A stretch of 20,000 bases of DNA. Origin: an uncultured virus (IMG/VR IMGVR_UViG_3300042274_000333). Lineage: Duplodnaviria; Heunggongvirae; Uroviricota; Caudoviricetes. A model generated the notes under the pieces. That model had not been told where the DNA came from, made no database searches, and saw nothing but the letters and a program-made list of their open reading frames with translations. Shown here piece after piece: positions 9,548-20,000 of the stretch (its first letter is position 1; every line of letters begins with the position of its first letter). The stretch lies in the IMG/VR virus record IMGVR_UViG_3300042274_000333. One strand, given 5' to 3'. Position numbers and translations under genes: made by a program.

Positions 9548-10530
9548 AAGATTTTTTAAACAAAAAAAACTCAACAAGAAATTTATCAGAAGATAGTTTT
9601 AAAAAAATACTACCGACACTGGCGGAGGAATTGAGTAATGTAGATTATCATTATTTTTACACAGACAAAGAACTTTTAAAAGATTGGGATAAGTTAAAAA
9701 ATTTTGAAACAGAAGAAGCTTTTACAGCTTCTACAGTAAGAGTTGGAATGAAACTTTGTGAATATTTTTTTCCTAACTTTTTTAAAATAAAAAACAATAA
9801 AGGTGAATCTTTTAATGATTTTTGGAATAAGGAAAATTTACAAAAAGTATTAAAGTGGAATAGGTCTTCACATTCAACCCCATACTTATCAGAATTAAGA
9901 AGAGGAGTTTATTTTTGTAATGGGTTAACAAAGAATACTATGTATAGACCGCATATAGCAAAAATGATATGTGATTTTTATAAACCTAAAAGAGTTTTAG
10001 ACCCATGTAGTGGATGGGGTGGAAGATTATTAGGAGTAGCGTCTGGTAATATAGAATACGTTGGATTTGAAACAAATAAAGAAACTTATAATAATTTATT
10101 GGAGTTAATACATTATTTGAATCTTGAAAATTTAGCAACTGTATACAACAACGGAAGCGAAAATATAAATTTTCAAGAAGAGTTTGATTTAGTAATTACT
10201 TCTCCTCCTTATTTTGATTTAGAAGTTTATAGTGATGAAAAAACACAAAGTGAAAACATGTTTTCTTCATACGAAGAATGGGCTAATGGATGGTTAACTT
10301 TAGTTATAGAAAAAAGTTTAAAAGCTTTAAAAAAAGACGGTGTTTCTTGTTGGAATACTCATAACATAGGAAACTATAAATTGATTGATGACGTTAAAAA
10401 TATCCATGAGAAAAACGGATTTCATTTAGATAAAGAATTTGGTTTAGTTTCTTCATCAAGACAGGCAAATCAAAACAATAACAAGAATAAAAAAACAGTT
10501 GATTTAACTATGTGTTTTATAAAAAATTGA
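9541..10530 (+). CDS. amino (N4-C/N6-A) DNA methyltransferase
   Basis: VLDPCSGWGGRLLG (motif I) then TSPPYF (motif IV). Confidence 0.9.
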   Translation: MVEDFLNKKNSTRNLSEDSFKKILPTLAEELSNVDYHYFYTDKELLKDWDKLKNFETEEAFTASTVRVGMKLCEYFFPNFFKIKNNKGESFNDFWNKENLQKVLKWNRSSHSTPYLSELRRGVYFCNGLTKNTMYRPHIAKMICDFYKPKRVLDPCSGWGGRLLGVASGNIEYVGFETNKETYNNLLELIHYLNLENLATVYNNGSENINFQEEFDLVITSPPYFDLEVYSDEKTQSENMFSSYEEWANGWLTLVIEKSLKALKKDGVSCWNTHNIGNYKLIDDVKNIHEKNGFHLDKEFGLVSSSRQANQNNNKNKKTVDLTMCFIKN

Positions 10531-10592
10531 CAAAAAACTAAAAATTTTGTATAATAAAGTATAATCAAATGGATGCTAACAGCAATTTAAAA
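10527..10592 (+). repeat. promoter plus start of ACAGCAA element; near-identical copy at 16396..16461
   Basis: TTGACA-17-TATAAT-AAAGTATAATCAAATGGATGCTAACAGCAATTTAAAA; 2 mismatches between copies. Confidence 0.9.
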
Positions 10593-10631
10593 AATAAAAA
10601 ATCTGTAAACTTTTTTAACCAAGGCATCCAG
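10570..10631 (+). ncRNA. ACAGCAA scaffold element 1 (minimal; Tyr-type CTGTAAA loop)
   Basis: TGGATGC-TAACAGCAA...GCATCCA-G. Confidence 0.7.
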
Positions 10632-10638
10632 AATTTAC

Positions 10639-10715
10639 AGTCGAGTGGAAACAAACAGGTGAAGTTACCTGTCTTATAAACAGGGCATTTGTGGGTTCGA
10701 AGCCCACCTCGACTA
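10639..10715 (+). tRNA. tRNA-Ile(TAT)
   Basis: CCTGT-CTTATAA-ACAGG; acceptor AGTCGAG/CTCGACT; A73. Confidence 0.88.
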
Positions 10716-10718
10716 TAT

Positions 10719-10833
10719 TGGCTACTAACAGCAAAAAAATTTAGGACTTGTAATCCAGAATTGTTGGTTCGAATCCAACTTGTTTAGAAATAAACAATAG
10801 TTCAATTGGTAGAACGCTTACAAATGTAGCCAG
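10719..10833 (+). ncRNA. ACAGCAA element 2 containing a circularly permuted tRNA (TGT loop)
   Basis: GGA-CTTGTAA-TCC, T arm GTTGG-TTCGAAT-CCAAC, closed acceptor TTGTTTA-GAAA-TAAACAA, D arm GTTC-AATTGGTA-GAAC; outer stem TGGCTAC/GTAGCCA. Confidence 0.82.
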
Positions 10834-10839
10834 TTTTAT

Positions 10840-10911
10840 AGGTGCGTGGTCCAAGGGTGAAGACAAAACTCTGATAAAGTTTAAATGACGGTTCAACTCC
10901 GTCCGTGCCTA
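10840..10911 (+). tRNA. tRNA-Ile(GAT)
   Basis: AAACT-CTGATAA-AGTTT; acceptor AGGTGCG/CGTGCCT. Confidence 0.9.
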
Positions 10912-11104
10912 AAATCTTCTGACGAGAAGGACGTAGAGCTTCCTCTGATATATTATATCAGTAGAAAAGGAAACATGACGAATCGTAGGTCGCAAGTTGT
11001 AACAGAAAATGGGGTACAACGCAGTGATGTGAAAAGAAATCTTATAAATAGAAGAATTGATCTCCTTCTATTCATAGAGTGGTTCATTACCACGCATCAC
11101 TTTT

Positions 11105-11233
11105 TGGATACGAACAGCAATTTAAAACCAAATACAATTAGGATGTAGAGGTATAGGTTCAAATCCTATTGTCCCTCCCTAAATTCATGAGGGACATGGT
11201 GTAATGGTAGCACGTTTAAAAGGACGTATCCAG
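11105..11233 (+). ncRNA. ACAGCAA element 3 containing a circularly permuted tRNA (TAG loop)
   Basis: TACA-ATTAGGA-TGTA, T arm ATAGG-TTCAAAT-CCTAT, closed acceptor TGTCCCTC/GAGGGACA, D arm GTGT-AATGGTA-GCAC; outer stem TGGATACG/CGTATCCA. Confidence 0.82.
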
Positions 11234-11237
11234 TTTT

Positions 11238-11309
11238 GCACGTATAGTATAACGGCTATTACCACAGCCTTCCAAGCTGAGGACGAGGGTTCAACTCCCT
11301 CTACGTGCT
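11238..11309 (+). tRNA. tRNA-Gly(TCC)
   Basis: ACAGC-CTTCCAA-GCTGA; acceptor GCACGTA/TACGTGC; U73. Confidence 0.92.
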
Positions 11310-11317
11310 TTTGAAAA

Positions 11318-11346
11318 TTGACAAAATTTTAGAATTTTGTTATAAT
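11318..11346 (+). promoter_or_regulatory. consensus sigma70 promoter
   Basis: TTGACA-17-TATAAT. Confidence 0.85.
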
Positions 11347-11362
11347 AAAGTATAAGTTTTTT

Positions 11363-11914
11363 GGAATCATTAAATGTTATACCCAAGTGTATGAAGGCTA
11401 ACAACCTTGCTTGGACTGTCTTGAATGCTTTGGTGAGTTATCACGGATACGTGCTGACTTAACCAACTGTCAAAATCGTAAGATTAGATGGATAAACCTC
11501 AAAAAGGTTAAAGCAAGAGACAGGTGCTTGAAAATACGCTTGAAAAGGTCATTATGCTGACCCCTTCGCAATAGGCGATACGCTAGCCATCCAGTAAGTC
11601 GGGCTTGACAACTTTGATACTGCTGGAAAAGTCAAAAGCAAGAAGGGACTGTGGTTGAAACAGAGAAATCTGTGTATAAGTTGTGCATAATCGTAAAGTA
11701 GTCCAATTCCACAGGTTCTTAAACATATTGGATGATTAACAACCTGAAAGTCGGATGAAATTTGTGGGTAGCCATTCCCACCTTGAGTTCGGGAGAAATC
11801 CCCTTTAGAAATGCTAAGGAGTAATTACCCATAGCACAGGTTCTATCGTCAAGTAACCTAATATTCAAGAAGTATTGGATAGTAAGATGAAGGTCTATAA
11901 TTTTTATTGGTTCC
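11363..11914 (+). ncRNA. large (~550 nt) structured RNA, ROOL/GOLLD-class candidate
   Basis: No ORF in the track, own promoter, ends pair (GGAATCA/TGGTTCC) before a U tract, many internal hairpins, located in a tRNA array. Confidence 0.6.
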
Positions 11915-11922
11915 TTTTTTAT

Positions 11923-11994
11923 GGCGATGAAACCAAATGGCTAGGTGCAACTCTCATAAGGTTGATTTAGTTGGTTCAATTCCAACCATCGTCA
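11923..11994 (+). tRNA. tRNA-CAT (elongator Met or Ile2)
   Basis: CAACT-CTCATAA-GGTTG; acceptor GGCGATG/CATCGTC. Confidence 0.88.
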
Positions 11995-11997
11995 CTT

Positions 11998-12121
11998 TGG
12001 TTACTAACAGCAAACAAAATCCGTGTAAAACGACAGACGGTGGTTCAAATCCATCTGTTCCCAAAATTCGTGGGAATATCGTCTAGGGGTTAGGACACTC
12101 GTGGAGAAAAGATGTAGCCAG
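11998..12121 (+). ncRNA. ACAGCAA element 4 containing a circularly permuted tRNA
   Basis: T arm GGTGG-TTCAAAT-CCATC, closed acceptor TGTTCCCA/TGGGAATA, D arm GTCTAGGGGTTAGGAC; outer stem TGGTTAC/GTAGCCA. Confidence 0.8.
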
Positions 12122-12126
12122 CAAAT

Positions 12127-12197
12127 GCAGATATGGTATAGTGGTATTACACGACCTTGCCAAGGTTGAAATGAGGGTTCAATTCCCTCTATCTGCT
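12127..12197 (+). tRNA. tRNA-Gly(GCC)
   Basis: CGACC-TTGCCAA-GGTTG; acceptor GCAGATA/TATCTGC. Confidence 0.92.
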
Positions 12198-12287
12198 TGA
12201 GGGAGCGACAGGTGCCAAAAGGTAAACCGTTGCTTTAAACTGGAAGAGGGAAAGCTTCTAGCCCGCTTTACGATAAGGAGGTTGACT

Positions 12288-12377
12288 ATGACTACACAGT
12301 TTGCCGTTCTTACCATTAGCGGACTTGTTCTCGGAACAGTTATCACATGGCTAAGAATATTAAGCGATGTGAAGTAA
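12288..12377 (+). CDS. 29-aa single-helix membrane peptide (Ldr/Fst type I toxin-like)
   Basis: AAGGAGG RBS; MTTQFAVLTISGLVLGTVITWLRILSDVK; 11-bp hairpin across the stop. Confidence 0.65.
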   Translation: MTTQFAVLTISGLVLGTVITWLRILSDVK

Positions 12378-12430
12378 GTTATTTTATAACTTACTTGGGT
12401 TTTCAGTTGTACCGTAAACAACTGGTATTT

Positions 12431-12502
12431 GCACCCTTAGCATAATGGTAATGCACGAACCTTGTAAGTTCGGTGATGTCAGTTCAAATCCGATGGGGTG
12501 CT
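12431..12502 (+). tRNA. tRNA-Thr(TGT)
   Basis: CGAAC-CTTGTAA-GTTCG; acceptor GCACCCT/GGGGTGC. Confidence 0.9.
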
Positions 12503-12521
12503 TAATAACAGGAGATAAAAA

Positions 12522-13127
12522 ATGATTAAAAACCTTCAAATAAATGAAGAAAGTTTCCCGTTTCAAATTTTAAGAAAAATGTATGATTGGGAAGGAAGGT
12601 TTTATCATACCATATATCATATTCAAGATATGATGCACTTTGCTTCAAAAGAACCTGATTTTACTGTAAATGTTGCTCTTGCAATATTATATCATGATGT
12701 TATAATCATTACTGGTAGCGAAGAAAATGAATTAGCATCTGCTGTGTTTTTCAAGTCTATGTGGGAAAGTGGTTTAGTTGATTCTTTGTTTATAAACAAA
12801 GAAGATTTAAACTCTGTTGATTCAGATAAAGTATTTGACTTAATCCTTGCTACAAAATATCATAGATTTACAGGAGACCCTGAAAACGATTTACTTATGA
12901 AGGCGGATTTGCTATGGTATTACAAAAATAACAACGGATACCAGTTAGTCAATGAAAATCTTATAAGAAAGGAATTTCAGAGCAAAAGCACTTATAGATA
13001 TTTAATCGGAAGAATAGAGTTTTTAGAAAATCTAAAAAAGACGCTTGAAGAGGATGGAGTTCTTGAAGATTATGTAAAAGGAATAGATGAAAATATTCTT
13101 TATCTTAAAGAGCGTTTTGAAAAATAA
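12522..13127 (+). CDS. HD-superfamily metal-dependent phosphohydrolase
   Basis: RFYHTIYHI, AILYHDVI, NELASA, ILATKYH, ADL, IRKEF...GRIEFL. Confidence 0.85.
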   Translation: MIKNLQINEESFPFQILRKMYDWEGRFYHTIYHIQDMMHFASKEPDFTVNVALAILYHDVIIITGSEENELASAVFFKSMWESGLVDSLFINKEDLNSVDSDKVFDLILATKYHRFTGDPENDLLMKADLLWYYKNNNGYQLVNENLIRKEFQSKSTYRYLIGRIEFLENLKKTLEEDGVLEDYVKGIDENILYLKERFEK

Positions 13128-13179
13128 AGAAGGATAAATGATATTGAACCACATGGTAAAATATAACCCAAAAAAATAG

Positions 13180-13208
13180 TTGCTAAAAAACTAAAAAAAT
13201 TGTATAAT
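13180..13208 (+). promoter_or_regulatory. sigma70-type promoter
   Basis: TTGCTA-17-TATAAT, same spacer as the promoter family. Confidence 0.8.
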
Positions 13209-13256
13209 AAGGTATAACGAAAAGAAGAAAAATAAAAAATGAACTAAAATTCATTA

Positions 13257-13354
13257 AAAGGAGGATAAGCCCATGAAGTAGTTTAGATTATCATTACCTC
13301 CATAAGTATAGTCGGTTTCTTAAGAAAAAACTGACAACAACATACTTATAGGAG
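13257..13354 (+). promoter_or_regulatory. leader mini-ORF with amber codon and RBS-sequestering hairpin (putative translational attenuator)
   Basis: AAAGGAGG; ATG AAG TAG TTT AGA TTA TCA TTA CCT CCA TAA (13273-13305); CTCC-ATAAGTAT pairs with ATACTTAT-A-GGAG (13342-13354). Confidence 0.75.
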
Positions 13355-13363
13355 AAAAGTAAA

Positions 13364-13714
13364 ATGGAAAAGATTTTTGATACGATTGAAGATTATAGAA
13401 ATGTGGTTTCTATGATGAAAGACTATTACAAAGAACTCTCTGCAAACATAAGAGAGGAAAAAGTAAAATACAAGAATTTACTCAGGGGAAGAGTATACCC
13501 TGACTATATGAATGTAAAATATCATCTTGATGATAACAGAAGAAATGCTAGGATTTTTAATGTAGTATATTCTATATTAAAAGGAAAATCGTATAAGCAG
13601 ATTGAACCCAAGATACGGGAGAAAAATGAGTTATACGGCGGTGAAATAAGAAAATTTTGTGAAAAATGGAATTTGCCTTCTGATCCTTTCGTAAAGGAGG
13701 TAAATAATGCTTAA
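13364..13714 (+). CDS. hypothetical protein translationally coupled to pth2
   Basis: 116 aa, AGGAG RBS, overlaps the pth2 start. Confidence 0.85.
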   Translation: MEKIFDTIEDYRNVVSMMKDYYKELSANIREEKVKYKNLLRGRVYPDYMNVKYHLDDNRRNARIFNVVYSILKGKSYKQIEPKIREKNELYGGEIRKFCEKWNLPSDPFVKEVNNA

Positions 13715-14090
13715 ACAGTATTTTTTGGTAAGGAAAGACTTGGGAATGTCAAAAGGGAGGATTGCTTCTCAAGTGGCGCACAGCGCTATTATGTGTCTTT
13801 TATCAAGTGGAGAGTGGAACGACAAAACAGTAACCTTCTCCCACTTACCGGATGCTATTCTTAATGATTTAAAGAAAGGATAGCCATTTACAAAAGTAGT
13901 TCTTTCAGCAAACTCGGAAACTGATTTTTATAATGTAGTAGAAAGTGTTAAGAAAACATCATTACCGTTTTATGTAATGATAGACAACGGATTCTATGAC
14001 AGCAATGGCATAGAAAAGGAAGAAGCAACTTGCTTGGCAATAGGTCCTTGCGAAGGGCTTCGGGAACTTGAAAGGTTTAGACTTTTGTGA
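13707..14090 (+). CDS. pth2: peptidyl-tRNA hydrolase Pth2 with in-frame TAG at codon 59 (13881-13883)
   Basis: MLKQYFLVRKDLGMSKGRIASQVAHSA...KKG*PFTKVVL...MIDNG...TCLAIGP...FRLL; AAGGAGG RBS; missed by the ORF track. Confidence 0.88.
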
Positions 14091-14095
14091 TTTTT

Positions 14096-14135
14096 GACTG
14101 GGAGGGTGCCAAACATCTTCCCAGTCCTTTTTTGA
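14096..14135 (+). terminator. intrinsic terminator after pth2
   Basis: GACTGGGAGGGTG/CATCTTCCCAGTC hairpin followed by a T tract. Confidence 0.7.
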
Positions 14136-14195
14136 CTTTGCCCCACGAAAGTGGGATGACGGTTTCGCTGTGCCAGCCTATGCAAAACAGTGGGT

Positions 14196-14408
14196 AGAGA
14201 AGTGGTGAAAAATACGGGAGTTATGTTGTCGGTCGCTGCAGAGGCGGTGACTTTATTCATAGCTCCAGTTGGCAGACACCCATATCTGTCGCCAGCTAGG
14301 CGCTGGAGAAGACGTAGAGCAAAATCAGAGAGTTAAGTGTACATAATACTCTCTTTCGTGCACGATAAGAGTCAGGCATGAATGTAGGTTCAAATCCTAC
14401 CTTCTCTA
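14196..14408 (+). ncRNA. tRNA-like RNA with large insertions (213 nt)
   Basis: Acceptor AGAGAAG/CTTCTCT-A, T arm GTAGG-TTCAAAT-CCTAC, D arm TGGTGAA...GGCAGACAC split by hairpin GGAGTTATG/CATAGCTCC. Confidence 0.7.
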
Positions 14409-14438
14409 AAAAGAATATTATGTAAAGAGGTTCGTTTT

Positions 14439-14711
14439 ATGAAAGTAGAAGAAGTATTAAGTTCTTTTAAACAATATTTTAGAAAAAATACTGTTCGTTT
14501 CAGAGAAAATCAAGAAGTAACTGCCTCTATTGGAAGGTTGTTAATTGACTTTAACAAGGAAAGGATGCTAATTATAGATGATAATTCTTTATCTTCTATA
14601 AAATATGAAGATATAGAAAGTATTGCTTTCTATGCTGGAGACGGATGGGATTATCCTAACGATATTAAAATAATTATTGACAAAGACAATTATATAAAAA
14701 TACATGTATAA
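14439..14711 (+). CDS. hypothetical protein
   Basis: 90 aa, GAGG RBS. Confidence 0.75.
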   Translation: MKVEEVLSSFKQYFRKNTVRFRENQEVTASIGRLLIDFNKERMLIIDDNSLSSIKYEDIESIAFYAGDGWDYPNDIKIIIDKDNYIKIHV

Positions 14712-14717
14712 TAGAAT

Positions 14718-14788
14718 GGGTTTGTGGTGTAACGGTAGCACAGAAAACTCTAAATTTTCTGGTGAGGGTTCAATTCCCTTCTTTCCCA
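14718..14788 (+). tRNA. amber suppressor tRNA (anticodon CTA)
   Basis: GAAAA-CTCTAAA-TTTTC; D arm GTGT-AACGGTA-GCAC; T arm GAGGG-TTCAATT-CCCTT; acceptor GGGTTTG/CTTTCCC has three U-U mismatches. Confidence 0.85.
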
Positions 14789-14800
14789 AAGGATATAAAA

Positions 14801-16381
14801 ATGAAAAGTACAAAAGAGCAAATTTTAGATTTACTTAATTTACTAGGAGAAGGTCAGCCTCAAAAAACTGGAAACTTTATAGAATATGAATTTAACCCTT
14901 CTCACATTGTTATTGAGCATGATAATGGAGCCAGAGAAGTACGTGAAGACGTTGGAATCACTACTTTTATTGTAGGTGTTAATAATGACCACCTTTCTTT
15001 TGAAACGTACTATGGGGTCAATAATAGACTTAAATATATCCCTGATAATACTTTTTCTATCCGTAGAATAAAGAAGAAATTTTTTATTAATAATTCAGAA
15101 AGAGGAAAATATCATGATGATTACATACTTGTAGAATTAAAAAGAGATTTTTTTGCTAAAGGTTCAAATTTAGGGTATTATATTCCAATAGAAAGGGAGA
15201 ATGACAACGTGTATGATTATGAAGAAAATAGTTTAGAAGGTAATTTTAAAAAAGCAAGAATGAAACTAATTCATTTTAATGATTTTAAAGAAGAAAGTTT
15301 TAGCAACAAAAAAAACATTGAATTTTCTTTAGATGAAAGCACGCCTTTTAAAGCATCTATGTATGAAGAAAGTTTAAGAGAACATGAATATTTGACAGCA
15401 AATGAATATATAAAGTCAGAATATTCTATATATGAAATCTTTAAAAGCTATAGTGATAAAGCTCTTATAAGCATATATTCTTCTGTTCCTGGAAATGTAA
15501 GAATAAAGATTTCAAGAGATGGTGTAGCATTATTTGATGTATATGGAAGATGTATAAATTTAGAAGTAAATGATGAATATGTAAATTTTCTGATAATTGA
15601 AAATAGAACAAATAAAAACTTCATTTGTAGTTTTTTACTACAGCCAGAGGAAATGCCTCCTTGGATTAAAGATCTTACAGAAGAAAAAGTAGATTCAGAG
15701 CAGATACTTATTAATAATGCTTTTAAGGAATTTAGAGAAGAAATAGATAAAGAAATTATTTCACAGTTATATAATAAAAAGGAGAATAAAATGAACAAAG
15801 CACTCAACGCATTTATGCCATCGTCTATCCCAAGTGGAACGATTGCACTTACTATGAATGGAACTATTGCAGTAAAAGCAGTAGATGAATCGTATGTTTC
15901 TTTTGATAAGGAAACTAAAACACTGGTAAATCACATGAATCTTGTATTTGGGCAAGATAAACTACACGAATTTAGTGCAGTTATGCCAGTAAACAAGGAA
16001 CAAGTAAAGATTGGAGACATCCTCCATACTGGACTTGGATGGGCTTTTGTTTCTGATATTGTTTCTGGAGAAGATGGTATTACCTCTTTGAAGGTAGTAA
16101 ATATTAACACCGGAAATGAAGAAAGCCAAGTAGACACAAAGAACGCATTTATCAATGCACCTACTGTAAAGAAACTTATCACTTTCTTCGGTGATTCTTT
16201 CTCTGGTGGAATGGATAATCCTAATGGCTTTAACCCTTTGATGTTCCTTATGATGGGAGACAGCAAGGGCGATAAGAACGATATGTTCAAGATGATGATG
16301 TTTTCTCAAATGATGGGAAATGGAAATCAAAGTGGAAATGGATTTAACCCACTTATGATGATGATGTTCATGGATAAGTAA
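14801..16381 (+). CDS. hypothetical protein with probable internal start at 15791 (Met-rich C-terminal product)
   Basis: ATG 14801 lies after the tRNA; AAGGAG-ATG at 15791 is in frame; NPLMFLMM/NPLMMMM repeats. Confidence 0.75.
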   Translation: MKSTKEQILDLLNLLGEGQPQKTGNFIEYEFNPSHIVIEHDNGAREVREDVGITTFIVGVNNDHLSFETYYGVNNRLKYIPDNTFSIRRIKKKFFINNSERGKYHDDYILVELKRDFFAKGSNLGYYIPIERENDNVYDYEENSLEGNFKKARMKLIHFNDFKEESFSNKKNIEFSLDESTPFKASMYEESLREHEYLTANEYIKSEYSIYEIFKSYSDKALISIYSSVPGNVRIKISRDGVALFDVYGRCINLEVNDEYVNFLIIENRTNKNFICSFLLQPEEMPPWIKDLTEEKVDSEQILINNAFKEFREEIDKEIISQLYNKKENKMNKALNAFMPSSIPSGTIALTMNGTIAVKAVDESYVSFDKETKTLVNHMNLVFGQDKLHEFSAVMPVNKEQVKIGDILHTGLGWAFVSDIVSGEDGITSLKVVNINTGNEESQVDTKNAFINAPTVKKLITFFGDSFSGGMDNPNGFNPLMFLMMGDSKGDKNDMFKMMMFSQMMGNGNQSGNGFNPLMMMMFMDK

Positions 16382-16395
16382 GGTAAAGATAATAC

Positions 16396-16424
16396 TTGAC
16401 AAAAAACTAAAAAAATTGTATAAT
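16396..16424 (+). promoter_or_regulatory. consensus sigma70 promoter
   Basis: TTGACA-17-TATAAT. Confidence 0.85.
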
Positions 16425-16438
16425 AAAGTATAATCAAA

Positions 16439-16493
16439 TGGATGCTAACAGCAATTTAAAAGTACTTTTTTGGTGTAAAGAAAAAGCATCCAG
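16439..16493 (+). ncRNA. ACAGCAA element 5 (minimal)
   Basis: TGGATGCT-AACAGCAA...AGCATCCA-G. Confidence 0.7.
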
Positions 16494-16497
16494 TTTT

Positions 16498-16580
16498 GGG
16501 CGATTAAGCAATGGTAGCGTTAGTGTAGTAAAACCCACAGTGGAGCCACTAAAATAAGGGTTCAATTCCCTTATCGTCCA
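16498..16580 (+). ncRNA. tRNA-like RNA with 21-nt anticodon loop and Ala-type acceptor
   Basis: GGGCGAT/ATCGTCC-A (G3:U70), stem TAGTG/CACTA, T arm AAGGG-TTCAATT-CCCTT. Confidence 0.7.
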
Positions 16581-16582
16581 AC

Positions 16583-16678
16583 GGTGTCGTAGAGAAATTG
16601 GCAAACTCCGCAGACGACCAAGAGAGTGCAGGCATCGTCTGCAATCCTGCTATGTAGGTTCGAATCCTACCGACACCA
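16583..16678 (+). ncRNA. tRNA-like RNA with 8-bp anticodon stem and 17-nt loop
   Basis: GGTGTCG/CGACACC-A, GCAGACGA/TCGTCTGC, T arm GTAGG-TTCGAAT-CCTAC. Confidence 0.72.
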
Positions 16679-16681
16679 CTT

Positions 16682-16730
16682 TGGAAACTAACAGCAAACA
16701 ACTTGAATGAGTAGCTTTAAAAGTTTCCAG
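16682..16730 (+). ncRNA. ACAGCAA element 6 (minimal)
   Basis: TGGAAACT-AACAGCAA...AGTTTCCA-G. Confidence 0.7.
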
Positions 16731-16982
16731 TTTTAATTTTAACTTATGTAGATAAAAAACGTTAGCAACGAAAAAGCATCTACTAAAGTATTATATGCGC
16801 TTACCCCAGTAGCTCTGGTAAGTAGCGCTAGTGCTGGCAAAGACTGCGAATCTAGTCAGCGAGCAACAACAAAGGCTTTGTCTTCGCAGGACAAAAATGG
16901 CGTAACCTCAAGTGAGAGGGGGAATCGGGATAATAAAGCCTTCCGATGCAAGGCGTTGTAAATGTTGTTGTCTTTTTATTTT

Positions 16983-17053
16983 GGTCTATTCGTCTAATGG
17001 TAGGACACCTGGTTCTCAGCCAGAAAACATCGGTTCAATTCCGGTATAGACTA
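16983..17053 (+). tRNA. tRNA-Glu(CTC)
   Basis: CCTGG-TTCTCAG-CCAGA; acceptor GGTCTAT/ATAGACT. Confidence 0.9.
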
Positions 17054-17055
17054 TT

Positions 17056-17116
17056 TGGATACTTACAGCAATCTTAATAAGGATAAATTTGGTTCGATTC
17101 CAAGAAAAGTATCCAG
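17056..17116 (+). ncRNA. ACAGCAA element 7 (small hairpin plus T arm)
   Basis: TGGATACTT-ACAGCAA...TTGG-TTCGATT-CCAA...AAGTATCCA-G. Confidence 0.72.
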
Positions 17117-17123
17117 CATTCGT

Positions 17124-17197
17124 CGCAGGGTGGACTGGAGAGGCTCCAGCTCGGTCTCATAAGCCGAATCACGAGGGTTCGACTCCCTCCTCTGCTA
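17124..17197 (+). tRNA. initiator-type tRNA-Met(CAT)
   Basis: C1xU72 mismatch; TCGGT-CTCATAA-GCCGA. Confidence 0.88.
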
Positions 17198-17202
17198 TTA
17201 AT

Positions 17203-17354
17203 AATGAAGTGGCGGAAACAGACGCAAGGTAGAAAAAGGATAGAGCAAACTGTATTAACAGGGGCTATCCCAAATAACAGAATACACACAGCTAGCTTAA
17301 GTGTATCACTGTTAACCTAAATGCTCATGTAGGTATTAAACCCTACCTTCATTA
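17203..17354 (+). ncRNA. tRNA-like RNA with expanded anticodon domain (152 nt)
   Basis: AATGAAG/CTTCATT-A, D arm TGGCGGAAACAGACGC, T-like arm GTAGG-TATTAAAC-CCTAC. Confidence 0.65.
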
Positions 17355-17780
17355 TTATTTACTTCTTGGTAAGATAGAGGTAAGAGCCTTTACTCGGGAT
17401 GTCCCATAAATGTATTATTTATTTTGTGGGAATGTAAAGGTTGGCTTTTCTGTTGAGCCACATAATAAAATCAGCAGACCTTGTTTGGGGAAGCAAGGTT
17501 ACGGTGATGCCAATGGCACCAATCTTACTAAGGCTTCAAATCCTTGCCGTACAAAGTTTTGACACGCCTCTACCGTTTGAGCCAGTGCGTGTAGCAATCT
17601 TCTAAAACCTGAATAAAAGAAGATTTGTATTAGTAAAAACGGTTCAGGGATAGGAAACACTTACATCCAGCAGTAAGCGTTTAATACGTGTTTAAGGTAA
17701 AGCCTGAATATCCTTAAACCTCTAGGTAAATAGAATAGTTGAGATTGTTTTATTTTCCGCTGGTTCAGGCATCATTTCTT

Positions 17781-17853
17781 GGTGAATGTAGCATAATGGT
17801 AATGCACCAGGTTGTGGAGCTGGTAGATGCGAGTTCAAGTCTCGTCGTTCACC
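17781..17853 (+). tRNA. tRNA-His(GTG)
   Basis: G-1:C73; CCAGG-TTGTGGA-GCTGG; acceptor GTGAATG/CGTTCAC. Confidence 0.9.
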
Positions 17854-17856
17854 CTT

Positions 17857-17885
17857 AAGGCGCACTTTTTAAGTGCGCCTTTTTT
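17857..17885 (+). terminator. intrinsic terminator ending the tRNA block
   Basis: AGGCGCACTT/AAGTGCGCCT followed by a T tract. Confidence 0.85.
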
Positions 17886-17923
17886 GTTTGAAAAGATACA
17901 TATATACTTGTATAGGAGAAAAA

Positions 17924-18340
17924 ATGAAGAAATTTAAAGTGGCTAAAAAGCCATATTCAATTGAAGAAGATTGCCCTAACTGTAAAGCAAAAGGGTATAT
18001 AGAAGTAGAAGTATTTGACAAATATACACAAGAAAATAAAAAACTTGCTTATATTTGCCCACAATGTGAAAATACAAAAAAAGTAAAAAAAGAAGAAGGC
18101 GAACGATACGAAATTGAAGAAGTGGAAGTTGTAGGAAACTGCCATTTTGAAAGTGGGGAAAACTTTGTTATTGAAACTATTCCCGAAGGTGGTTCTTCAA
18201 ACACTATTTTTCTAGAAGATGGAACTGTTTATTCCCTGGAAAGATTTCCAGTAAATGTGTATTTTGATTCTGTTGAAGAAGCAGAAGAACATCAAAAAGA
18301 TTTAGAGCAAAAAGATGAAGAGATAGAAACAGATAAATAA
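17924..18340 (+). CDS. hypothetical zinc-finger protein
   Basis: CPNCKAKG...CPQC; AGGAG RBS before ATG 17924. Confidence 0.8.
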   Translation: MKKFKVAKKPYSIEEDCPNCKAKGYIEVEVFDKYTQENKKLAYICPQCENTKKVKKEEGERYEIEEVEVVGNCHFESGENFVIETIPEGGSSNTIFLEDGTVYSLERFPVNVYFDSVEEAEEHQKDLEQKDEEIETDK

Positions 18341-19029
18341 TGGCAGAAACATACATCACAGGTGATTTACATGGAAGGTTTCCATTATACAAAAAAAACA
18401 TACCAGAATTTACCAAAGATGATTTTCTTATTGTCTGCGGTGATTTTGGTTATATATTTTCAGAGAAAGAAACTTCTTTTGAAAAAGAAAGACTTGATGA
18501 ACTCCAAAGTAATACTAATGGATGTACCATTTGCTTTGTGGATGGAAACCATGAAAACTTTGATAGGCTTAAAAACCTTCAAATGGAATACCGATTTGAT
18601 AATGAAGTTGGTGTAGTAAGAGAGGGCATTTATCATTTACGAAGGGGAAGACCTTATGTGATAAATGGTGATACTATGCTTACTTTTGGAGGAGCTATCT
18701 CTACTGATAGAATGAGTAGAATTCCTAATATAAACTGGTGGTATGATGAAGTTCCTAATGATGATGAAATAATATTGGCAGAAAATGTTATTAAGAGTCA
18801 GCCGGTTGATTACATCATTACACACACCTGTCCGTTTTCCGTGCGGAGACGTATAAAGAGTAAGAAGTTATATAACCTTCATTGTCCTACTGAAGTTGCT
18901 CTTGAAGGGATTAAACGTCAAGTAAAAGGTGGTTTCAAAAAATGGTATTTCGGACATTTTCATGCCGATGAAATAGTTGACAATAATTTTAGATTATTGT
19001 ATAATGATATTATAAGAATCGGAGAATAA
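18340..19029 (+). CDS. calcineurin-like metallophosphoesterase
   Basis: GDLHG, GDFG, DGNHEN, ITHT, GHFH. Confidence 0.92.
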   Translation: MAETYITGDLHGRFPLYKKNIPEFTKDDFLIVCGDFGYIFSEKETSFEKERLDELQSNTNGCTICFVDGNHENFDRLKNLQMEYRFDNEVGVVREGIYHLRRGRPYVINGDTMLTFGGAISTDRMSRIPNINWWYDEVPNDDEIILAENVIKSQPVDYIITHTCPFSVRRRIKSKKLYNLHCPTEVALEGIKRQVKGGFKKWYFGHFHADEIVDNNFRLLYNDIIRIGE

Positions 19030-19030
19030 T

Positions 19031-19351
19031 ATGGAAATCACTTATGACGAAATTTACGCTATGTGTTGGAAGTCTTTAAAAAAATCTATGGATCGACTTA
19101 AAGAAAATCCGTTTACCTATGAAGTGTGGAAAACTGTTGACAGTGTAACTTCTTCTATTGAAAATACTATTTGGGATGAGGCTCAAAAAAAAGATGCAAA
19201 GATAGTAAAAACTAAAAAAGAGCATTTTGATGGAATGAGGTGGAGTTCTTTAATAAAATCGTTAGAGGAAGTAAAAGAAAAACGACCAGAAGAATTTGAA
19301 AAGCATGTTAAGTTCTTTTATAACTTAATGAAAAATCTTGAAAGTTTATAA
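19031..19351 (+). CDS. hypothetical protein
   Basis: 106 aa, GGAG RBS. Confidence 0.78.
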   Translation: MEITYDEIYAMCWKSLKKSMDRLKENPFTYEVWKTVDSVTSSIENTIWDEAQKKDAKIVKTKKEHFDGMRWSSLIKSLEEVKEKRPEEFEKHVKFFYNLMKNLESL

Positions 19352-19356
19352 ACAAC

Positions 19357-19425
19357 GGGGTATACTGGATTAGATTGGTATTCTATAGAATAGCCAAGAC
19401 GAGGGTTCAACTCCCTCATACTCCA
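19357..19425 (+). ncRNA. miniature tmRNA-like RNA (tRNA-like domain only)
   Basis: GGGGTAT-ACTGGATTAGA, short hairpin, GAC-GAGGG-TTCAACT-CCCTC-ATACTCC-A; G3:U70; unpaired D loop. Confidence 0.7.
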
Positions 19426-19441
19426 CAACAGGAGATTACAT

Positions 19442-19657
19442 ATGGCAAGTGAATTTGATGCTACTAATGCCGTTTGGGGAGAAGACCTCCAAGACATATT
19501 TTTTGAAGAGCCATATGTATATATGGATAATAGAATAACTCTCATGTTTGACGAAAAGGGAGAGGCATCTTTGTTGATGCCTATATATTATAATACACCT
19601 TTAGAAATTATACTTGAGAGCTTAAAAGAGATAGAAGAATATTTTTCTTCTTTATAG
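19442..19657 (+). CDS. hypothetical protein
   Basis: 71 aa, AGGAG RBS. Confidence 0.75.
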   Translation: MASEFDATNAVWGEDLQDIFFEEPYVYMDNRITLMFDEKGEASLLMPIYYNTPLEIILESLKEIEEYFSSL

Positions 19658-19681
19658 AGTGGTTTTTACCACTCTTTTTTT
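19656..19681 (+). terminator. intrinsic terminator
   Basis: AGAGTGGT/ACCACTCT followed by a T tract. Confidence 0.8.
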
Positions 19682-19693
19682 ATTAACAAAAAA

Positions 19694-19722
19694 TTGACAA
19701 AATTTTAAAAAAATAGTATAAT
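19694..19722 (+). promoter_or_regulatory. consensus sigma70 promoter
   Basis: TTGACA-17-TATAAT. Confidence 0.85.
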
Positions 19723-19748
19723 AGTGATATACGAAAAAGGAGAAAACT

Positions 19749-20000
19749 TTGATTGACAAGAGCAGTAATAGATATAAAAAATTTTTATTGTTAACTTCAT
19801 ATATTATTTCTGGAAGAAAAGCTTATTGTATTTTTGAGAGTGAGAAATATATTTTTGAAGGGAGAGCTATATCCTCTTGCAATAGCATCTTTCATAGTGG
19901 TTGTAATAATTGCCCTATGCGTATAAACTCTTTGGAAAAAATAAAGAAAATTATAATAAGAGAAAACACGATAAAAAGTAAAGACCATGGCTATATTATT
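19749..20000 (+). CDS. hypothetical protein, 5' part (runs off the window)
   Basis: AAGGAG RBS, TTG start, open frame MIDKSSNRYKKFLL... to the window end. Confidence 0.65.
   Translation, partial: MIDKSSNRYKKFLLLTSYIISGRKAYCIFESEKYIFEGRAISSCNSIFHSGCNNCPMRINSLEKIKKIIIRENTIKSKDHGYII

Follow-up and report, generated by a model that had tools for sequence, protein, structure and literature searches.

Why would a phage place a strong ribosome-binding site (RBS) in front of a reading frame that stops at its third codon? The question is raised by a leader in the stretch of DNA analysed here (the window), 20,000 nucleotides (nt) of the uncultured-virus record IMGVR_UViG_3300042274_000333 in IMG/VR and an AT-rich part of a large phage. 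On the + strand, the Shine-Dalgarno (SD) sequence AAGGAGG (13258-13264) lies 8 nt before ATG 13273, and ATG AAG is followed at once by an in-frame amber codon, TAG (13279-13281). Behind the leader stand the gene for a 116-amino-acid (aa) protein whose family has no name (13364-13714, + strand), a gene for a PTH2-type peptidyl-tRNA hydrolase (13707-14090, + strand) whose start overlaps the stop of the first, and an amber-suppressor tRNA with the anticodon CUA (14717-14789, + strand; ARAGORN, and Rfam tRNA at 56.2 bits). Judged from sequence comparison, the leader is probably a translational switch gated by amber read-through, with the tRNA(CUA) as its presumed input.

An amber codon ahead of a masked start site

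An earlier note on this DNA had pointed to the strong SD sequence, the early TAG and a frame that continues beyond it, and direct reading bears these out. Past the TAG the frame runs TTT AGA TTA TCA TTA CCT CCA TAA and closes at 13303-13305. The resulting mini-open reading frame (mini-ORF; 13273-13305, + strand) reads M-K-(TAG)-F-R-L-S-L-P-P-stop, with Pro-Pro at 13297-13302. The same note had described a hairpin with the Pro-Pro-stop codons in its 5' arm, the RBS of the next gene in its 3' arm and an inner stem between them; folding reproduces it (13298-13354, + strand). The outer stem joins 13298-13309 to 13342-13349 and 13351-13354, with A13350 bulged, and the inner stem joins 13311-13318 to 13328-13335 with one G.U pair around a loop at 13319-13327. 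The minimum free energy (MFE) of the hairpin is -17.7 kcal/mol against -7.6 ± 2.3 kcal/mol for shuffled sequences (z -4.4), and 0 of 200 shuffles were as stable. Its 5' arm (13298-13309) overlaps the Pro-Pro-stop, and its 3' arm (13342-13354) covers GGAG 13351-13354, the sole SD sequence before ATG 13364, which lies 58 nt from the stop of the leader ORF.

Two details of the earlier description hold in the window but do not extend to its relatives. The CCTCC of the proline codons (13297-13301) is complementary to the leader's own GGAGG (13260-13264), but relatives have not kept this alternative pairing: just 3 of the 26 loci assembled below use CCT as the first Pro codon. Similarly, the 5' arm lies inside the Pro codons in the window, whereas in most relatives it starts just past the stop. 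A further hairpin around the leader's own SD and ATG, seen when 165 nt of leader were folded, was not counted; the substitution T13245A in relatives would break its pairing.

The proposed mechanism uses these elements in turn. The putative promoter at 13180-13208 (TTGCTA, 17 nt, TATAAT; + strand; 10/12 consensus positions) would give an mRNA whose first cistron is the 10-codon leader with its strong SD. When there is no suppression, release factor 1 would end the leader at codon 3 (TAG 13279). The ribosome would then be left 19 nt short of the hairpin, which would therefore stay closed and keep its GGAG out of reach for the 116-aa gene and, by coupling, for PTH2. Decoding of the TAG by tRNA(CUA) would allow seven more codons to be translated and bring the ribosome to the Pro-Pro-stop. 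Proline slows both peptide-bond formation and release, and a ribosome would be expected to dwell there. It would cover the 5' arm (13298-13309) and set free the RBS in the 3' arm, so that the downstream genes would be translated; the footprint geometry is taken from bacterial ribosomes in general. The response would thus be positive, and gating by read-through would make the level of the gated proteins a measure of how efficiently UAG is read as sense. That a read-through ribosome parks on the masking arm and frees the downstream start had been suggested in the earlier note, and the comparative evidence below supports it.

The closest relatives leave the leader intact. In metagenome contig L005 the promoter, leader and gene are the same, with a different gene upstream of them, and Logan contigs that span the leader come from bovine, manure and landfill runs. 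Over 13258-13312, which includes the leader's SD, there is no change in L005 and three Logan contigs. Substitutions in the stem do occur in relatives (C13313T, A13330G and A13334G), and each turns a Watson-Crick pair into G.U with pairing kept, which fits an RNA helix on the + strand. The region 13013-20000 is 100% identical to IMG/VR record G001 (46.9 kb, rated 21% complete), which runs 40 kb past the end of the window; the leader motif is unique in the 60-kb composite of the two. Rfam gives no family at gathering scores at the leader and none at E <= 1 over 13100-14800, and blastn of 12500-14800 against GenBank phages gives no match.

Recurrence of the leader and its link with tRNA(CUA)

Alignments of more distant relatives of the 116-aa protein (the smaller alignment, A5, was used) led to four IMG/VR loci at 30-44% identity (L010, L011, L012 and L013), and a PTH2 alignment led to two further cassettes (L054 and L056). 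All seven cassettes, window included, have an upstream mini-ORF with TAG at codon 2-5 and Pro-Pro or Gly-Pro before its stop. With in-frame stops written out, the peptides are MK-stop-FRLSLPP-stop (window), MK-stop-IFTLGP-stop (L010), MR-stop-VIGFI-stop-LKVFKPP-stop (L011), MRK-stop-IHPP-stop (L012), M-stop-IRPIFKPP-stop (L013), ML-stop-IKPP-stop (L054) and MKFT-stop-VKPP-stop (L056). Outside the window, five cassettes have Pro-Pro-stop and one has Gly-Pro-stop, and an arm complementary to the RBS follows at once. The same strand carries a tRNA(CUA) in 7/7 cassettes; it lies 5-50 nt behind the PTH2 or PTH2-like gene in L010, L011, L012, L013 and L054 and 26 nt behind it in L056, and the 81 kb of record G005 contain no other tRNA. 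Six PTH2 loci that lack tRNA(CUA) have neither the small protein nor the leader, and the same holds for L127, a homologue of the second gated family described below. When both strands of five phage records (685 kb) were scanned for SD, start, TAG at codon 2-4, Pro-Pro and stop, four loci matched and all four are leaders of the homologous gene.

The element was also sought in IMG/VR by pattern alone (AAGGAG-N5-8-ATG-N3-9-TAG-N6-CCNCCN-TRA), which gave 42 loci, 28 with the frame kept and 14 out of frame. A tRNA(CUA) lies within 1.8 kb on the same strand in 26/28 in-frame loci against 0/14 out-of-frame loci (Fisher p 2.3e-9); with identical copies removed, the counts are 21/23 and 0/10 (p 7e-7). 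The in-frame matches without tRNA(CUA) are L081 and L101, and L101 reads ATG TAA and is a false match. Replacing TAG by TGA in the pattern gave 13 matches, none near any tRNA. The CAA/CAG version gave 60 matches; only three were complete mini-ORFs in frame, and neither tRNA(CUA) nor a gated family lay near any of them. Because neither version gave such loci, the TAG is, by this comparison, a defining part of the element and not exchangeable. It is also the gate codon in 8/8 loci found without imposing TAG (the window, L010, L011, L012, L013, L054, L056 and L126).

If the frame beyond the TAG is translated, its peptide would be expected to carry marks of selection. Peptide features were counted over 26 distinct loci, L126 included; Lys/Arg, the choice of Pro codon and the purine discussed here were not imposed by the pattern. 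Lys or Arg stands before Pro-Pro in 21/26 loci. All four Pro codons occur at both Pro positions, and the rarity of CCT at the first of them indicates that Pro-Pro is more than an anti-SD CCUCC. In 23/26 loci the TAG is followed by a purine, which in E. coli makes for better suppression. Also in 23/26, TAG is the third codon when numbering begins at the ATG nearest the SD; on that count the leader peptides are 7-16 residues long. The TAG, the in-frame Pro-Pro-stop and the adjacent arm are kept in all 26 despite complete sequence turnover. Conservation of the amino acids past the TAG through synonymous change argues that this part of the peptide is under selection and that ribosomes do translate beyond the TAG.

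The same conservation bears on a different reading, in which the leader is a two-codon minigene (M-K-stop) that causes peptidyl-tRNA drop-off and is tied in this way to PTH2, the frame past the TAG being irrelevant. The lambda bar minigenes are the natural comparison, and the strong SD, the very early stop and a PTH2 or PTH2-like gene in or beside most cassettes would suit such a role. However, past the TAG the loci keep x-[K/R]-P-P-stop in frame while their codons change synonymously, out-of-frame versions never occur with tRNA(CUA), and PTH2 loci without a suppressor tRNA have no leader. We therefore consider a minigene very unlikely.

The masking arm is kept as well. In 23/25 MFE folds the start region of the gated gene (-14 to +3) pairs with a stretch at most 22 nt past the leader stop. 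The duplex between arm and start has a mean energy of -12.8 kcal/mol, compared with -5.6 kcal/mol for shuffled arms, and in 19/25 loci it is matched by at most 3 of 300 shuffles. In the folded loci the arm starts within the Pro-Pro-stop or 0-3 nt past it, a geometry that would suit a ribosome paused there and overlapping the 5' arm. The arm changes with what it masks: where the gated gene has an SD, the arm is anti-SD, and in a group of giant phages whose gated gene lacks one, the arm is GUUUCCAUAA and its partner UUAUGGAAAC, the start codon itself. The giant-phage group includes the 735-kb GenBank record LR756501, in which the leader M-S-(TAG)-S-R-P-P-stop is followed by the gene and two tRNA(CUA) genes. 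LR756504 also encodes a homologue, which is without a leader and has no tRNA(CUA) closer than 1.5 kb.

In most loci the tRNA(CUA) lies 5-113 nt behind the gated ORFs, which suggests co-transcription. This opens the possibility that the leader controls another or an additional step: read-through might shield the transcript from Rho termination or RNase and in that way control the co-transcribed tRNA(CUA) itself, an autocatalytic feedback, or the sign might be the reverse. For Rho there is an engineered precedent, a UAG placed in the tna leader, which works through Rho and a rut site (PMC6412442). The arrangement of the loci makes this alternative unlikely. A tRNA(CUA) stands directly upstream of the leader in L079 (duplicates L080 and L082) and in L088, ending ~16 nt before the leader SD. 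In the window, a terminator-like hairpin that closes the unit (14096-14135, + strand; 13 pairs, 7 G-C, then CTTTTTTGAC) and about 600 nt separate PTH2 from the tRNA, and no T-run follows the leader hairpin. What the loci conserve is an arm able to pair with the SD or start codon of the ORF that follows.

Several observations weigh against a read-through switch or limit the support for it. These are (i) the origin of the loci, since 21/26 come from a pattern that imposes AAGGAG, ATG, TAG, CCNCCN and the stop, and many are related by descent (13 in one protein family) and do not count as 26 independent events; (ii) the close relatives, whose invariance is weakly significant at 4.9% local divergence (P about 0.07, our own estimate) and cannot tell coding from RNA constraint; (iii) the folds, as the whole 165-nt leader is only modestly more stable than its shuffles (z -1.9, 11/200), the arm/start duplex is no better than shuffles in L067, L071 and L089, and it is weak in L079, L010 and L086; (iv) the window peptide, which is atypical in having Leu rather than Lys/Arg before Pro-Pro and a T after the TAG; (v) the window tRNA(CUA), whose acceptor stem, as drawn by ARAGORN, has three U.U mismatches in a row above G-C pairs, so that its activity is uncertain; and (vi) the RNA-library run X19, whose single contig spans 13325-13800 and does not show transcription of the leader or the transcript start.

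Short ORFs are common in AT-rich DNA, and together with the modest whole-leader fold this raises the question whether a short ORF and a hairpin have simply met in an AT-rich intergenic region. The motif scan of 685 kb, the association with tRNA(CUA), the duplex shuffles and the TGA and CAA/CAG controls all contradict coincidence, the probability of which we put as negligible.

Putatively gated genes and the genetic code of the phages

The PTH2 of the window matches PF01981 over residues 2-116 (E 5.7e-19; 68.9 bits against a cut-off of 23), and the match crosses an in-frame TAG (13881-13883) read as Gln. This TAG is codon 59, where four relatives at 54-91% identity have Gln. Since the domain crosses the TAG and the relatives have Gln, production of the enzyme would need UAG to be read as an amino acid, most simply Gln; alternatively, this copy may be broken. 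An in-frame TAG is present in PTH2 of three lineages, with one each in the PTH2 of G008 and G009, and amber-gated PTH2 thus appears to recur.

Three kinds of gated product stand behind the leaders. The 116-aa family has 56 distant relatives at E <= 0.001 and the motif R..H/N-I/V-x-Y-S..K/R-G..Y.QIEPKVRE; by hidden Markov model (HMM), it is present with PTH2 behind it in 6/21 pattern loci. An AlphaFold2 model of the window protein (predicted local distance difference test score, pLDDT, 92.7) consists of a long helical hairpin and three short helices. The protein has no family in Pfam and no usable feature match in the ESM Atlas; its model gives nothing at E <= 0.001 in Foldseek against the PDB, and a wide search with VIA returned generic helical hairpins only (best Z 8.0). 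A PHROG assignment as 'transcriptional regulator' (E 0.007) was too weak to use. A tblastn match to Agrobacterium phage Atu_ph07, covering 40% of the query at E 3e-4, was dropped, its context being different and without a tRNA.

The second gated family comprises proteins of 137-167 aa at 13 loci recognised by eye, five of them aligned as A8, and often has a PTH2-like gene upstream. It has no Pfam or PHROG family, and a relationship of A8 to the 116-aa family is not detectable (hhalign probability 0.3%). The third product is the 222-aa protein gated in L079. Its C-terminal half is PTH2-like and homologous to the PTH2-like protein of L013 (E 3e-12). Fusion to the 116-aa family is not established for this protein, as its N-terminal half matches 14 columns with a probability of 1.9% and has no BLASTP match.

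Two cassettes show additional features in this region. In L010 (record G002), the small protein gene and PTH2 are separated by an ORF (L010 2668-3753) that resembles a homing endonuclease, of GIY-YIG type by eye. In L054, both of these genes appear interrupted (at about 600-1500).

The phages themselves have retained TAG as a stop. In eight records, ORFs of at least 150 aa cover 0.64-0.85 under code 11, and the gain from reading TAG as sense does not exceed that from reading TGA as sense; of these records G003 and G004 are rated 100% complete, while G001 and five others are fragments that may lack late regions. TAG is the stop of many long genes, and a few genes have a single internal TAG. In the parts examined these phages are thus not globally recoded, and UAG appears still to be a stop that is sometimes overridden. 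Because TAG remains in use as an ordinary stop, the leader TAG would present a real, conditional barrier, and an overridden stop is a situation in which a read-through sensor would make sense.

These data also bear on whether the leader is an ordinary constitutive one, with TAG a mere Gln codon in infected cells that senses nothing and a hairpin opened whenever the mini-ORF is translated, or a leader that responds to elongation factor P (EF-P) or to proline supply. Pro-Pro motifs do depend on EF-P, and the TAG at an invariant Gln position of PTH2 indicates that TAG is decoded at least sometimes. We nonetheless hold such a leader to be quite improbable: it is hard to reconcile with the frequent use of TAG to end long genes and the ORF gain given above, with the presence of TAG in every locus found without imposing it, with the lack of any related locus from the CAA/CAG pattern, or with a link to tRNA(CUA) whose strictness would be hard to explain for a neutral codon.

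If the leader is a read-through switch, then leader, gated proteins and tRNA(CUA) might together form a closed feedback loop that measures and adjusts the fraction of UAG read as sense. We regard this extension as possible but doubtful. Were it true, the loop would be either a homeostat that keeps suppression partial in phages whose genes end in TAG, or a self-reinforcing switch. The leader would be a natural sensor for a tRNA that reads a stop codon, and the gate codon would be expected to co-evolve with the tRNA anticodon.

In G004, two very long ORFs on the - strand (9917-13426 and 14339-17971) each have a single TAG near the C-terminus (codon 993/1169 and codon 1131/1210). They may be read-through extensions made only when a suppressor tRNA is active.

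Related leaders and the surroundings of the locus

Control by a leader peptide is a familiar device. In ermC, ermB, cat, cmlA, secM-secA and mifM-yidC2, the gene is switched on when a ribosome is detained at a defined codon of the leader and opens the 5' arm of a structure. The element described here resembles the erm, cat and secM attenuators in having a short upstream ORF with its own RBS before the regulated gene and a structure that hides the start site. It differs in its signal: in place of an antibiotic or secretion activity sensed through a long nascent chain, what would count is whether the stop at codon 3 is decoded. Its peptide, of 7-16 residues, is too short to fill the exit tunnel. 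Nothing in these loci suggests that a small molecule or secretion is sensed, and the in-frame TAG linked to tRNA(CUA) is their conserved variable element.

In prfB, which encodes release factor 2 (RF2), an early in-frame UGA and a +1 frameshift within one ORF sense the release factor. Here too an early in-frame stop would act as a sensor of termination efficiency, the outcome of a competition setting expression. Unlike in prfB, the competitor would be a suppressor tRNA and the output the unmasking of a separate cistron.

Pro-Pro is the arrest site in the RAPP/RGPP arrest peptides ApdA, ApdP and ApcA (PMC10951233, PMC12992588). Those peptides share with the present leaders a C-terminal Pro-Pro, a basic residue just upstream and a position before the regulated gene. 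Their R-A/G-P-P core differs from the x-[K/R]-P-P-stop found here (S-L-P-P in the window), and the present peptides are far shorter, run directly into their stop and have an amber gate; no RAPP or RGPP core occurs among the 26 leader loci. Release is blocked at the Pro-stop that ends TnaC, and in an engineered form of its leader with an inserted UAG the downstream gene needs translation past the UAG (PMC6412442). A proline before the stop that slows termination and a ribosome sitting on a regulatory site are common to tnaC and the present leader, and the UAG version follows the same logic. tnaC senses tryptophan and acts through Rho-dependent transcription termination, and its UAG version is man-made. 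The leader in the window is natural, has a phage tRNA as its partner and would act at the initiation of translation.

Phages recoded to code 15 also carry a tRNA(CUA); for these, the code change has been connected with the timing of gene expression, and neighbouring translation genes have been described as a 'code change module' (10.1101/2021.08.26.457843). The phages considered here, however, show no visible recoding and continue to use TAG to end genes, and the element would be a dedicated cis-acting sensor and not a set of in-frame stops in late genes. In the preprint text, the word 'leader' has 0 occurrences. A full-text literature search, with subscription-only papers outside its coverage, found no natural leader of this kind described. 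Taken together, the comparisons support the view that the element is a form of leader-peptide control with amber suppression as its signal.

Phage suppressor tRNAs are known, and the element, as a cis-acting read-out of amber suppression, would bear on how a phage controls or monitors the changed meaning of UAG. It combines parts with known mechanisms (a mini-ORF, a pause at Pro-Pro-stop and a hidden start site), and the proposal can therefore be tested with simple reporters. It would mark two unnamed protein families and PTH2-type hydrolases as products wanted only under UAG read-through, and these products may point to undiscovered accessory factors of suppression. It would also be a natural counterpart of synthetic switches with UAG in leader peptides, and a compact, portable part (~100 nt) for genetic-code-expansion circuits. 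Some of the largest phage genomes known, such as that of LR756501, contain it.

The leader promoter is conserved in L005 before the same leader, and its core belongs to a set. The sequence AAAAACTAAAAAAATTGTATAAT has six copies on the + strand of the window with at most three mismatches, where none is expected, at 139, 1077, 6494, 10533, 13186 and 16402; most of them drive tRNA clusters or structured RNAs. The tRNA(CUA) of the window is about 630 nt behind PTH2, with the terminator in between. Comparison of the suppressor tRNAs of five phages revealed no close homology among them.

Between the PTH2 terminator and an ORF at 14439-14711 lies an unclassified GC-rich structured RNA (14127-14412, + strand), with ~50% GC in surroundings of 30% GC. 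Its fold has an MFE of -99.2 kcal/mol (z -4.26; 0/200 shuffles as stable), and Rfam returns weak rows only, one tRNA-like (14327-14408, E 0.13) and one a group II fragment (E 0.19). ARAGORN finds 23 tRNA genes in the window, and Rfam adds to these further tRNAs and a ROOL RNA (RF03087, 236 bits, full length) at 11359-11916 (+ strand), within the phage tRNA array. The tRNAs called by Rfam but not by ARAGORN lie at 11923-11994, 16498-16580 and 16583-16678 (+ strand) and may be unusual or intron-bearing.

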